A DNA stretch of 64,000 bases from Candidatus Gastranaerophilales bacterium (lineage in GTDB: Bacteria; Cyanobacteriota; Vampirovibrionia; Gastranaerophilales; CAJFVJ01), in assembly GCA_944323485.1 (NCBI GenBank), contig CALUSR010000001.1, positions 482,123 through 546,122 on the forward strand, in the 5' to 3' direction. Positions 10,893 through 27,721 of the stretch are shown here, in pieces. Within the stretch, counting starts at the first letter, position 1; every line of letters starts with the position of its first letter. A model generated the notes under the pieces. That model saw nothing but the letters and a program-made list of their open reading frames with translations. It made no database searches and was not told where the DNA came from. A program made the position numbers and the translations under genes.

Positions 10893-10926
10893 AAAAAAGA
10901 CGGATATTCATCATCCGTCTTTTTTT
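10893..10926. terminator. Bidirectional intrinsic terminator
   Basis: AAAAAAGACGGAT-ATTCATC-ATCCGTCTTTTTT between convergent genes. Confidence 0.85.
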
Positions 10927-11380
10927 AGTCAACAAGCTCGTCTTGTTTTTCACATGTTTCATATATAAAATATTTTGCTTTTTTATTCTGCAAAAGCATT
11001 TTGTTCAGCATTTTTCCGTCTTTCAAATATACATAAGCAAGAAGCCGTCCGTAAGAGTCCCTTTTGTTTTCTTCAAATTCGAGGTATACCATATCATCTG
11101 GCTTAAGCTCTTTTTGAACATAATACTTTGCAAGTTTTCCGAGTTCCACAACTTTTTCGACGGTAATTTTTTCAGTGTAAGCCTGTTTGTATGCTCTGTT
11201 GTTCGGATATGTTTCATAGCAGTCGACCCCGAGAAGCCTTACAGTTTCCTGTTTGTTGTCTATCAAAACTTCTATCGTGTCGCCATCTGTGACTTTAATG
11301 ACCTGAGCTTCTATTTTCTCAGCTGCGAATGCTGGAGAAAAATATAGAAGAATTAATACTATTAGAAATATTTTTTTCAT
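10925..11380 (-). CDS. Secreted thermonuclease (SNase-like) family protein
   Basis: Signal peptide; V.KV.DGDTI.V, VRLLGVD..E and D.YGRLLAYVYL.DG.MLN..LL motifs. The C-terminus looks shorter than in typical members. Confidence 0.85.
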   Translation of the reverse strand: MKKIFLIVLILLYFSPAFAAEKIEAQVIKVTDGDTIEVLIDNKQETVRLLGVDCYETYPNNRAYKQAYTEKITVEKVVELGKLAKYYVQKELKPDDMVYLEFEENKRDSYGRLLAYVYLKDGKMLNKMLLQNKKAKYFIYETCEKQDELVD

Positions 11381-11397
11381 TAATTAACCCTTTAATA

Positions 11398-11423
11398 GTG
11401 CTTATTTAGCAGTGGTGCTTATT
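11398..11423 (+). promoter_or_regulatory. Conserved 26-bp upstream motif, copy 1 (putative operator/promoter)
   Basis: GTGCTTATTTAGCAGTGGTGCTTATT, 24/26 identical to 11679-11704 and at the same distance from the following ATG. Confidence 0.6.
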
Positions 11424-11447
11424 AAGTATACCATATACCCTAAAATT

Positions 11448-11666
11448 ATGGAAATAGATGAAATATATAGAAAAATTGGAAATAATATAAAAAAATATCG
11501 TTTGTATGCAGGGTTAACGCAAGAACAGCTGTCAGAAAAAATTAATGCTAACCAAAAATTTATTGGGCATGTTGAAAGAGTTGAAAGATATATTGGTCTA
11601 AAAAAAATAATAAAAATTTCAGAAATATTGGGTGTTCCTCTAAAAAAATTTTTTGATTTCGACTGA
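11448..11666 (+). CDS. XRE-family HTH regulator (controller-protein-like), 72 aa
   Basis: IG.NIKKYR..AGLTQEQLSEKI...FIGHVER HTH_3 pattern. I chose ATG 11448 by alignment with the paralog. Confidence 0.85.
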   Translation: MEIDEIYRKIGNNIKKYRLYAGLTQEQLSEKINANQKFIGHVERVERYIGLKKIIKISEILGVPLKKFFDFD

Positions 11667-11678
11667 GTATTCTGTATG

Positions 11679-11704
11679 GTGCTTTTATAGCAGTGGTGCT
11701 TATT
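11679..11704 (+). promoter_or_regulatory. Conserved 26-bp upstream motif, copy 2
   Basis: GTGCTTTTATAGCAGTGGTGCTTATT. Confidence 0.6.
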
Positions 11705-11728
11705 TATCAGAAAATATACTCTTTATTT

Positions 11729-11944
11729 ATGGAATTGGATGAAGTATACAGGCAAATAGGCAAAAAATTGAGACAATACAGGCTTGAGGCAGGTATGACG
11801 CAGGAAGAACTTGCTGAAAAAATTGATGCAAATTCTAAGTTTGTCGGTCATGTTGAGCGTTTTGAGCGGTGCATAAGTTTAAAGAAATTAGCCCAAATTT
11901 CAAATGTTTTGTCCGTTCCTTTAAAAAATTTTTTTGATTTTTAA
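11729..11944 (+). CDS. XRE-family HTH regulator, 71 aa, tandem paralog
   Basis: 46/71 aa identical to 11448-11666 by manual alignment. Confidence 0.85.
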   Translation: MELDEVYRQIGKKLRQYRLEAGMTQEELAEKIDANSKFVGHVERFERCISLKKLAQISNVLSVPLKNFFDF

Positions 11945-12080
11945 ATTAACATTTGAGATAAACATTAAAGCTCAAATGGATAAAAAATGAAAAAACAAAG
12001 TCTTGATAGCCTGCATACAAGCATAGGTACAAAGTTTAGTGAAATAAAACTCTTGGACCTGTGAAGGCTCCTCATTTTGA

Positions 12081-12106
12081 ATCGCTCTGAGCGTAGGCGA
12101 AGAGCC
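12081..12106 (+). repeat. REP-like palindromic unit (degenerate CGTC type)
   Basis: atcgctctgagcgtaggcgaagagcc matches the window consensus GTCAyTyTGAGCrnAGCGAArwrTCT. Confidence 0.55.
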
Positions 12107-12108
12107 AT

Positions 12109-12274
12109 TTTTTGTTCATTTCTTTCTTTTTGTTGCGAGCAAAAAGAAAGAAACGCAACCAAAGAAAGAAAAACCGCAATCAAAACGAAATCTTGAATTT
12201 TTTTACTGAAACTTTGAAAAGTCGCTGCGCTCCACAAAGTTTCGACAAAAAAATTCTGCTTTCGTAGCCATTAG
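12109..12274 (+). repeat. ~165-nt structured dispersed repeat, copy A (candidate ncRNA or non-autonomous element)
   Basis: Colinear with 27558-27721; two hairpin domains and a purine mirror repeat. Confidence 0.8.
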
Positions 12275-12305: not shown

Positions 12306-12388
12306 CGTCACTCTGAGCGAAACGAAGAGTCTTTTGCTCGCAAGAATTCTTCCGTCACTCTGTTCTCTTGGAATGATGTGGGGTTATT
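12306..12388. repeat. Inverted pair of CGTC-type REP-like units
   Basis: CGTCACTCTGAGCGAAACGAAGAGTCT ... AGAATTCTTCCGTCACTCTGTTCTCTTGGAATGATG. Confidence 0.65.
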
Positions 12389-13992: not shown

Positions 13993-14066
13993 TGTCCACG
14001 ACAGGAGTCGAACCTGCGACATTTACCTTAGGAGGGTAACGTTCTATCCTTCTGAACTACGTGGAC
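13993..14066 (-). tRNA. tRNA-Arg (anticodon CCT)
   Basis: GTCCACG acceptor stem, anticodon arm TTACC-CTCCTAA-GGTAA, GTTCGAC T-loop. CCA is not encoded. Confidence 0.95.
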
Positions 14067-27477: not shown

Positions 27478-27503
27478 CGTTACTCTGAGCACAGCGAAGA
27501 GTC
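27478..27503 (+). repeat. REP-like palindromic unit
   Basis: CGTTACTCTGAGCACAGCGAAGAGTC. Confidence 0.65.
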
Positions 27504-27557: not shown

Positions 27558-27721
27558 TTTTGTTCATTTCTTTCTTTTTGTTGCGACCAAAAAGAAAGAA
27601 ACGAACAAAAGAAAGAAAAAGCGCAGCCAAAACGAAATCTGGAATTTTTCTCCTGAAACTCTGAAAGTCGCTGTGCTCCACAGAGTTTCAACAAAAAAAT
27701 TCCGATTTCGTAATCTGTTAG
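27558..27721 (+). repeat. ~165-nt structured dispersed repeat, copy B
   Basis: Colinear with 12109-12274; compensatory change in the GAAACTCTG/CAGAGTTTC stem. Confidence 0.8.

Follow-up and report, generated by a model that had tools for sequence, protein, structure and literature searches.

The stretch of DNA analyzed here, hereafter the window, comprises 64,000 nucleotides of contig CALUSR010000001.1 (positions 482,123 to 546,122) of assembly GCA_944323485.1, a 2.05-Mb genome with 36% G+C in 8 contigs that belongs to the Gastranaerophilales (Melainabacteria) and to the same genus as Candidatus Adamsella avium. We found a structured, non-coding repeat of approximately 155 nt to be present twice in the window, in colinear copies on the plus strand. 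The first of them, copy A, is bordered on its left by a cassette (10925-12106) of an SNase-like gene and two XRE genes of 83 to 84 amino acids (aa), and a gene encoding a TPR-repeat protein converges on it. A preliminary description of the window had placed the two copies at 12109-12274 and 27558-27721. Both are real, and an alignment of four copies with 150-nt flanks trimmed them to 12110-12266 (copy A) and 27568-27712 (copy B), with a sharp start (TTTTGTTCA) and a sharp end (TTTCGTA). Copies A and B are ~90% identical over ~155 nt, which is far above chance expectation, and the similarity of their flanks ends at the block edges.

Each copy joins two modules, i.e., module 1 (domain 1), a hairpin followed by a mirror-image purine tract, and module 2 (domain 2), a long hairpin whose apex carries the core of units resembling repetitive extragenic palindromes (REP). 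Judging from the copies compared, the hairpin stem and the mirror purine tract of module 1 covary from genome to genome, which is what an intramolecular triple helix would demand. The features of the two copies are as follows, with Y for pyrimidine and R for purine tracts.

12110-12266, plus strand: copy A, whole conserved block (four-copy alignment with flanks, genome search, identity in strain contigs)
12112-12118, plus strand: copy A, 5' arm of the stem extension, TTGTTCA; pairs with 12154-12159
12119-12131, plus strand: copy A, pyrimidine tract Y1, TTTCTTTCTTTTT
12133-12139, plus strand: copy A, loop of the hairpin, TTGCGAG; possible pairing with CGCAA at 12176-12180 (TTGCG/CGCAA, 5 bp)
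12141-12153, plus strand: copy A, purine tract R2, AAAAAGAAAGAAA; Watson-Crick partner of Y1
12154-12159, plus strand: copy A, 3' arm of the stem extension, CGCAAC; 1 nt (12160) lies between it and R3
12161-12173, plus strand: copy A, purine tract R3, AAAGAAAGAAAAA; exact mirror of R2 and putative third strand of a triple helix
12185-12265, plus strand: copy A, domain 2, long interrupted hairpin (RNAfold, pair covariation)
12222-12232, minus strand: copy A, apex of domain 2; reads GAGCGCAGCGA on the minus strand, the core of the REP-like units of this genome
27568-27712, plus strand: copy B, whole conserved block (four-copy alignment; orthologous site occupied in Ca. Adamsella avium)
27577-27589, plus strand: copy B, Y1
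27599-27611, plus strand: copy B, R2
27617-27630, plus strand: copy B, R3 (AAAAGAAAGAAAAA); mirror of R2
27642-27711, plus strand: copy B, long hairpin of domain 2, with an apex at 27668-27678 that is complementary to the REP core GAGCACAGCGA of 27487-27497

The preliminary description had proposed a genome-wide collection of copies, covariance models and a search of Rfam, all of which are reported below. The genome holds four full copies that are 86 to 90% identical, namely A, B, C3:38927-39084 (minus strand) and C4:158846-159002 (plus strand), hereafter the C3 and C4 copies, along with decayed ones. Two of the latter retain domain 1 only (C1:145250 and C1:597134), another has an internal deletion that fuses domain 1 to the last 15 nt (C1:143753), and a fourth consists of the 3' half of domain 2 (C3:18666). 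A deletion that fuses R2 with R3 recurs at C1:143753-143809, at C1:597134-597177 and in the metagenome contig L153. In this derivative, R2 is joined to the 3' part of R3 (CAAAAAGAAAGAAAAAACGC); the events are independent and match the slippage expected between purine tracts. The sequence of copy A is identical across all strain contigs, and short-read contigs break within the element. An open reading frame (ORF) of 51 aa runs across copy A (12112-12267); a protein-coding reading was ruled out because the copies differ by 1-nt indels, so that the ORF is not conserved and the element is non-coding. The four-copy alignment contained no conserved sequence outside the block, either upstream or downstream, and neither window copy has a promoter- or terminator-like consensus.

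Module 1, a hairpin with a mirror purine tract

The preliminary description had drawn domain 1 as a stem of TTTCTTTCTTTTTG and CAAAAAGAAAGAAA, which we recovered at 12119-12132 and 12140-12153. The most informative property of this domain, its mirror-image third strand, was not part of that finding. Module 1 is a hairpin in which a helix of pyrimidine Y1 and purine R2 forms the upper 12 to 16 bp and an extension of 5 to 7 bp lies below it; 1 to 2 nt and then R3 come next. The tracts are 12 to 16 nt long with 0 to 1 mismatch, loop 1 has 3 to 13 nt (usually 7), and the spacer of 6 to 8 nt between R2 and R3 is largely the 3' arm of the extension.

We compared 70 distinct copies of module 1 from at least 60 loci. 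R3 was the exact mirror of its own R2 in 27 of the 29 distinct R2/R3 string pairs, with two G-mismatches in total, whereas only 12 of the 29 fit as direct repeats, with 35 mismatches. When the R2/R3 partners were permuted, 30.6 ± 3.7 mismatches resulted, and none of 2000 permutations matched the observed 2. The number of A's on the junction side was always equal in R2 and R3 (3/3, 4/4, 2/2, 0/0). Examples of R2 with its mirrored R3 include A5GA3GA3 and A3GA3GA5, A5GA4GA3 and A3GA4GA5, A4GAGA5GA3 and A3GA5GAGA4 (with T3CT5CTCT4 as Y1 in L036), A5GA3GAG and GAGA3GA5, A4GA6GA3 and A3GA6GA4, and A5GA7 and A7GA5. The extension covaries family-wide as well (GTTCA/TGAAC, CTTAA/TTAAG, GTACA/TGTAC, CAACA/CGTTG, CCAGTAA/TTCTGG). 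Where homopurine tracts are mirror-symmetric, the only structural explanation that is established is the formation of a triplex. Since R3 mirrors R2, module 1 has the design of an intramolecular triple helix.

We also considered R3 as an alternative Watson-Crick partner of Y1, as in an attenuator-like switch. Such a pairing needs R3 to be a direct repeat of R2, and the asymmetric variants had no mirror mismatches against two to four direct ones, so we rejected it. A pseudoknot between loop 1 and the tail after R3 (TTGCG/CGCAA, ACGC/GCGT, CGCA/TGCG) is suggested by single cases; over the copies, the mean pairing of 3.06 was no better than the 3.28 of a reversed-tail control.

As for the strand that folds, the Y-R-R order of the given strand corresponds to class II, the purine-motif intrastrand triplex, and the order of the complementary strand (Hoogsteen strand, Y, R) to class IV, the pyrimidine motif (PMC4666352). 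Module 1 has this class II/class IV layout, with Y, a complementary R and a mirror third tract on one strand. Purine-motif triplexes rely on G.G-C triplets and cannot form in RNA, whereas pyrimidine-motif ones do (PMC4666352). The tracts are 77 to 92% A with isolated G's and never contain GG, a composition that suits U/T.A-U/T triplets with an occasional C+.G-C on the complementary strand and not the purine motif. The design on that strand is a run of T(U).A-T(U) triplets, interrupted by C+.G-C at two or three isolated positions. Just below the tract, 21 distinct copies of many lineages have an A.C junction pair when read on the given strand, equivalent to G.U/T on its complement; other copies have A-T at this junction, and L086:5019 and L193 have G-C. 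On the complementary strand these variants form the classical U-A, U.G, C-G series, which is a hint in favor of that strand.

The geometry provides a further hint. In an H-type pseudoknot, 1 to 2 nt of loop 1 suffice to bridge the deep groove across 6 to 7 bp of A-form helix, and the complementary strand of module 1 would have this very topology. On the given strand, the linker of 1 to 2 nt cannot run 5 to 7 bp along the same strand. This geometry speaks for RNA only if the extension persists alongside the triplex; with the extension melted, its 6 to 8 nt would serve as an ordinary triplex loop in DNA too. Overall, the folded strand is more likely to be the complementary one, probably as a pyrimidine-motif triple helix.

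The long hairpin of module 2 and the REP-like units

Domain 2 had been described as a long interrupted hairpin, ACGAAA..GAATTTTT..GAAACTyTG / CArAGTTTC..AAAAATTC..TTTCGT, and RNAfold predicted it at 12185-12265 on both strands (z = -3.9 and -3.2). The preliminary description had also pointed to a compensatory change in it and, from this, to selection on structure. We confirmed the change in the alignment (columns 106/129), where the pair 12214/12237 is U-A in copy A and C-G elsewhere. RNAalifold found 46 pairs among ten distinct sequences of the Adamsella type, i.e., the type of the copies described above, and 3 of them had double-sided changes. In addition to the former, the C3 copy has A-U in place of G-C in the basal ACGAAA/TTTCGT stem and C-G in place of G-C in the module 1 stem extension below the pyrimidine tract (columns 3/51). 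Strain-level contigs and a metagenome scan added almost no further Adamsella-type variants. The covariation within the genus is thus real but thin.

In genomes of the family f3, module 1 is followed by a longer hairpin of the same layout. With a covariance model, R1, built on this hairpin, we detected 30 copies in the loci examined; 92.5% of their cells were paired compared with 73.1% in shuffles, and 24 of the 27 pairs had double-sided changes. The covariation score was 0.571, against 0.217 for shuffled alignments (0 of 500 reached it) and 0.05 to 0.13 with slid partners. The stems vary freely (ACTGC/GCAGT, CCGTCAC/GTGACGG, GAGGCAC/GTGCCTC), and the bulges and the apex are constant. The apex reads AACTCGCTtCGCTCAgACA in f3 and AAGTCGCTgcGCTCC in this genome, with GAGCGnAGCGA on the complementary strand. 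The two types of domain 2 are probably homologous, as suggested by their shared architecture and this short apex motif. Covarying stems with fixed loops point to a folded single strand and not to a duplex transposase site. Selection on structure, for which the evidence is thin within the Adamsella type, is decisively supported by the f3 hairpin, and module 1 adds its three-way covariation. It is secure on these comparative grounds that constraint acts on both modules as a folded single strand, and the element appears to have been selected to fold in this form.

Several arrangements around the f3 hairpins were also observed. A covarying hairpin (GGGGAC..GTCCCC, GGGTGC..GCACCC, AGGGGC..GCCCCT) and a C-rich run (ACCCCGCAC) are found 5' of module 1 in f3 genomes (L062 3085-3120 and relatives; L078, L075 and L074), where outer inverted repeats (ACATAAAtTATGTTATTGGAA) bound an element of ~430 bp. 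Domain-2 hairpins occur in head-to-head pairs at L072 1579-1691/1709-1857, L066 3248-3394/3432-3579 and L060 2852-2990/3013-3117. One hairpin of the pair carries domain 1 in L072 and L066 (L060 is outside the domain-1 copy set); such pairs with a single domain 1 indicate that the modules recombine independently.

The REP-like units have the consensus GTCAyyyTGAGCGnAGCGAAGrrrTC, with a conserved core and with stems that differ between units through compensating changes. The core GAGCGnAGCGA has 81 matches in the genome, where ~22 are expected, and whole units have 36 to 84 depending on the pattern used. They cluster around both copies of the element in the window, and another lies at ~54114.

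12083-12106, plus strand: REP-like unit (CGCTCTGAGCGTAGGCGAAGAGCC) directly adjacent to copy A; the strain-variable XRE cassette has its breakpoint here
12307-12331, plus strand: REP-like unit GTCACTCTGAGCGAAACGAAGAGTC, downstream of copy A
27480-27503, plus strand: REP-like unit with core GAGCACAGCGA, upstream of copy B

Long f3 variants (L062 3180-3327 and ~17 other loci) contain a second REP-like hairpin (e.g., GTCATCCTGAACTCGTTTCAGGATC) exactly between TCGCT and GCTC of the apex. It thus seems that the REP core is itself a place where REP-like units insert or duplicate.

Distribution, gene context and polymorphism

Among 60 relatives searched, the widespread part of the element was limited to its first ~68 nt, i.e., module 1, with up to 26 matches per genome. 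For order- and phylum-wide counts we used a covariance model of module 1 (model R2, not to be confused with the tract). Of 301 genomes sampled from the order, 168 gave a match; they represent 39 of 58 genera and often have at least 16 copies, and many matches sit at contig ends. A 301-genome sample of the phylum gave 72 positive genomes, all of them Gastranaerophilales, with none outside the order, and an exact-pattern scan of 185,579 species representatives gave 38 loci, nearly all in metagenome-assembled genomes (MAGs) of Gastranaerophilales/Melainabacteria. The element also occurs on contigs of MAGs labelled Clostridia (L080), Sulfurimonadaceae (L061), Bacteroidales (L068) and Gammaproteobacteria (L070, L073 and L086). 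Between L080 and an A. avium copy, one flank base differs over the 110 nt compared (a 15-nt flank and the first 95 nt of the element). These contigs of other phyla are probably mis-binned. Only tRNAs passed the gathering threshold in Rfam 15, where the best sub-threshold match was to a hairpin-like family (28 bits against a threshold of 55), and searches of phages, plasmids and viral contigs gave no match to the element. At the descriptive level, it is secure that this is an undescribed non-coding family of structured, dispersed intergenic repeats; in the genomes sampled, it is confined to the Gastranaerophilales. Module 1 also makes up both inverted ends of foldback elements of ~360 bp and 540 to 590 bp in G036 and G038.

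According to the preliminary description, both copies lie just downstream of a helix-turn-helix (XRE) gene and between convergent genes. This holds for the two copies of the window and not for the other two in the genome, so the XRE neighborhood is not general. The cassette to the left of copy A is replaced in the strain contig L097 and in A. avium (loci L097 and L050) by one XRE gene of 110 aa and a shorter SNase ORF. L097 retains copy A and the TPR gene product unaltered, and its breakpoint coincides with the REP-like unit next to the element. The locus has the look of a hot spot for recombination. A functional link of the element to XRE genes was rejected, the association not being general and the cassette being swapped while copy A stays identical in L097. 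A tRNA gene (13993-14066, minus strand; RF00005, 67 bits) lies immediately upstream of the TPR-repeat gene.

Among 56 copies that could be scored against flanking ORFs, 18 were between divergent, 14 between convergent and 24 between tandem genes. This lack of an orientation rule means that the element is not tied to transcript ends. Copies A, B and C3 are in complementary orientation 120 to 270 nt downstream of a converging gene, and C4 is not.

In the comparison with A. avium, three copies occupy orthologous sites in both genomes; A. avium lacks copy A and carries one diverged copy that is missing from the present genome, and two full A. avium copies correspond to decayed ones here. In the genus g22, one intergenic site was empty, partly filled or filled, and element-bearing intergenic regions were highly polymorphic. 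Such copy decay and presence/absence polymorphism are the behavior of a selfish repeat, and the copies in this genome are old and probably immobile. We looked within g22 for a clean empty site of the G036 foldback element and found the sites to be mosaics of small repeats with no duplication. A seeming excision footprint in A. avium (TTTTGTTC followed directly by GTA) was discarded, the string not being repeated in the genome. A 2.5-kb inverted pair in G005, considered as an autonomous element, contained ordinary genes only.

Known relatives of the design and candidate explanations

The closest known counterparts of module 1 are the BoxC/PIT/TM_ECO repeats, which are intergenic, show no strand bias, lack mobility genes and lie at rearranged loci; for TM_ECO, which has the same design in Escherichia coli, folding into a DNA triplex was found in vitro (Holder et al. 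2015, PMC4666352). The consensus of TM_ECO is CCCTCNCCC N3-6 GGGNGAGGG N3 GGGNGAGGG, and the ITxF definition given with it asks for a stem of 6 to 15 nt with at most 1 mismatch and loops of 1 to 6 nt (PMC4666352). The present family resembles these repeats in having Y, a complementary R and a mirror R on one strand, with the pyrimidine-motif design on the opposite one, and in being multi-copy, intergenic and located at variable loci, without strand bias or nearby mobility genes. Hoyne et al. in 2000 reportedly allowed loops of 0 to 10 nt for PIT elements; the loops of module 1 are within these limits and mostly just beyond those of ITxF. Module 1 shares the design of TM_ECO and is not a sequence member of that group, its tracts being TTTCTTTCTTTTT, AAAAAGAAAGAAA and AAAGAAAGAAAAA. 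They are A/T-rich (A3GA3GA5 type) and 12 to 16 nt long, whereas those of TM_ECO are G/C-rich (GGGNGAGGG) and have 9 nt, and the spacer of 6 to 8 nt is half of a covarying stem extension. While TM_ECO has been described as almost invariant, the Gastranaerophilales family is diversified with three-way covariation, is joined to a second long hairpin and is found in this order only. Finally, the purine motif was shown for TM_ECO, and the composition here favors the pyrimidine motif on the complementary strand.

The element also shares features with miniature inverted-repeat transposable elements (MITEs) and foldback repeats such as Correia/NEMIS, ERIC, RUP and Nezha, which are small, non-coding, multi-copy and intergenic, with hairpin potential and presence/absence variation; inverted module 1 ends of ~360-bp elements, in sister genera only (G036 and G038), add to this likeness. 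Unlike MITEs, the Adamsella-type copies have no terminal inverted repeats, and neither a target-site duplication nor a cognate transposase was found. With REP, BIME and REPIN sequences it shares hairpins with a conserved core and compensating variable stems, mosaic clusters and the REP-like core at its apex, but it is much longer, contains a triplex-type module and has no RAYT/Y1 gene in this genome or its sister species.

On balance, we slightly favor the reading that the element is a structured, dispersed repeat of ~155 nt of the MITE or REP kind, i.e., selfish or semi-selfish DNA and not a gene. The fold would then serve the element's own persistence or spread, for instance through recognition by a putative protein that also reads the REP core, and effects on neighboring genes, such as a block to exonuclease or polymerase or a recombination hot spot, would be incidental. 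A number of observations weigh against this reading. In the comparisons with A. avium and within g22, no target-site duplication or clean empty site could be defined and the presence/absence sites are mosaic, so that mobility is something we infer from polymorphism and not a demonstrated property. The ends of the Adamsella-type copies (TTTTGTTCA... and ...TTTCGTA) are unrelated. No transposase partner was found: Y1_Tnp (PF01797) is absent from G000, G001, G016, G036 and G039 despite their 4 to 26 copies (other transposase families are unsurveyed), and DUF559 (PF04480) is absent from the same five genomes. Dependence on IS200/IS605 or RAYT was accordingly dismissed, there being no PF01797 gene, and DUF559 does not track copy number, with strong matches in G014, G040 and G042, which have few or no copies. 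Because the flanks of orthologous copies are mosaic (63 to 100% identity), stronger conservation of the copies than of their flanks was a candidate that failed, and inference from conservation is impossible. The R1 model scores the Adamsella-type domain 2 at only 5.6 bits, which is not significant, and the strand evidence from domain 2 is mixed (26 G.U to 12 A.C in total, and 9 to 7 once one weak helix is left out). Moreover, what the comparison shows for module 1 is three-way covariation of its tracts, from which the formation of a triple helix is a further step.

Among the alternatives, it is possible though unlikely that the element acts in cis as RNA, in that its complementary strand is transcribed within a neighboring mRNA and forms a nuclease-resistant cap that stabilizes or delimits the transcript. 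A 5' U-rich tract would lie in the major groove of a U/A hairpin, making 13 U.A-U or C+.G-C triplets, and the linker of 1 to 2 nt would cross the deep groove of the 5- to 7-bp extension like loop 1 of an H-type pseudoknot. The A-rich tracts with isolated G's, the pyrimidine motif as the one that RNA can form (PMC4666352), the G.U junction of 21 copies and the agreement of extension and linker with the groove-crossing rule all favor this, as does the position of copies A, B and C3 behind converging genes where no canonical terminator is found. The absence of an orientation preference among the 56 scorable copies and the different placement of C4 argue against it, and truncated copies and presence/absence differences count against a required function. 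In the same spirit, and with as little expectation, one may picture the complementary-strand transcript of module 1 as a pseudoknot-like RNA triple helix of 13 to 16 consecutive triplets, spread by a mobile repeat as a portable RNA-stability or RNA-end module. If transcribed, that strand would resemble the major-groove triple helices of RNA (the elements for nuclear expression [ENEs] of MALAT1 and PAN, double ENEs derived from transposable elements, telomerase, SAM-II) in its U.A-U triplets with isolated C+.G-C, and the pseudoknot triple helices of telomerase and SAM-II in its loop 1-type topology. Unlike ENE/MALAT1, it would be a contiguous fold-back of three tracts with 13 to 16 consecutive triplets and not a U-rich internal loop clamping a 3' A-tail. 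Such a run of triplets would exceed any natural bacterial RNA triple helix known to us.

It is doubtful that the element acts as a non-B structure of DNA, with the R2/R3 mirror repeat forming H-DNA or the palindrome a cruciform in the supercoiled duplex, or with an intrastrand triplex on single-stranded DNA, and causing polymerase pausing, recombination and variable loci. The in vitro DNA triplex and the rearranged loci of TM_ECO (PMC4666352) fit this proposal, and so do the swapped XRE cassette beside copy A, the recurrent R2-R3 deletions and the polymorphic regions of g22. However, H-DNA needs the mirror repeat alone and leaves the covarying Y1, the stem extension and the strand-asymmetric A.C junction unexplained. 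A-rich purine-motif triplets of DNA are weak, and stable TM_ECO triplexes are not supported by in vivo footprinting. The preliminary description had named a non-coding RNA as a candidate; as a discrete gene it did not hold up, given the lack of a conserved promoter or terminator and of an orientation rule and the decay and polymorphism typical of selfish repeats. A family of trans-acting small RNA genes, each copy being independently transcribed, would account for covarying stems with conserved unpaired motifs and for a multi-copy family outside Rfam. We consider it highly improbable in view of the missing conserved outer sequence and promoter/terminator consensus, copy numbers of 0 to at least 16 between related genomes, truncated copies, REP units nested in the apex and the use of module 1 as inverted ends of larger elements.

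To our knowledge, BoxC/PIT repeats have been known for 25 years without a function, on the evidence of their design and of the in vitro folding of one nearly invariant G/C-rich motif. The Gastranaerophilales family presents the same triplex design in A/T-rich form, diversified over a whole order, with the three strands changing together in at least 12 distinct patterns, which is comparative evidence that selection keeps the three-stranded fold itself. These natural triple mutants are a concrete set for biophysical tests and make the family a tractable case for long major-groove triple helices in bacterial RNA or single-stranded DNA. Genome annotation gains a defined repeat family at which assemblies of gut Melainabacteria break and by which their variable loci are marked. 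A review of 2026 on triple helices in RNA, in the portion available, places ENE-like helices in plant and fungal transposons only and gives riboswitch and group II intron triples as the bacterial cases. If the reading as a portable RNA module were true, the element would be a bacterial counterpart of the ENE-type triple helices of those transposons.

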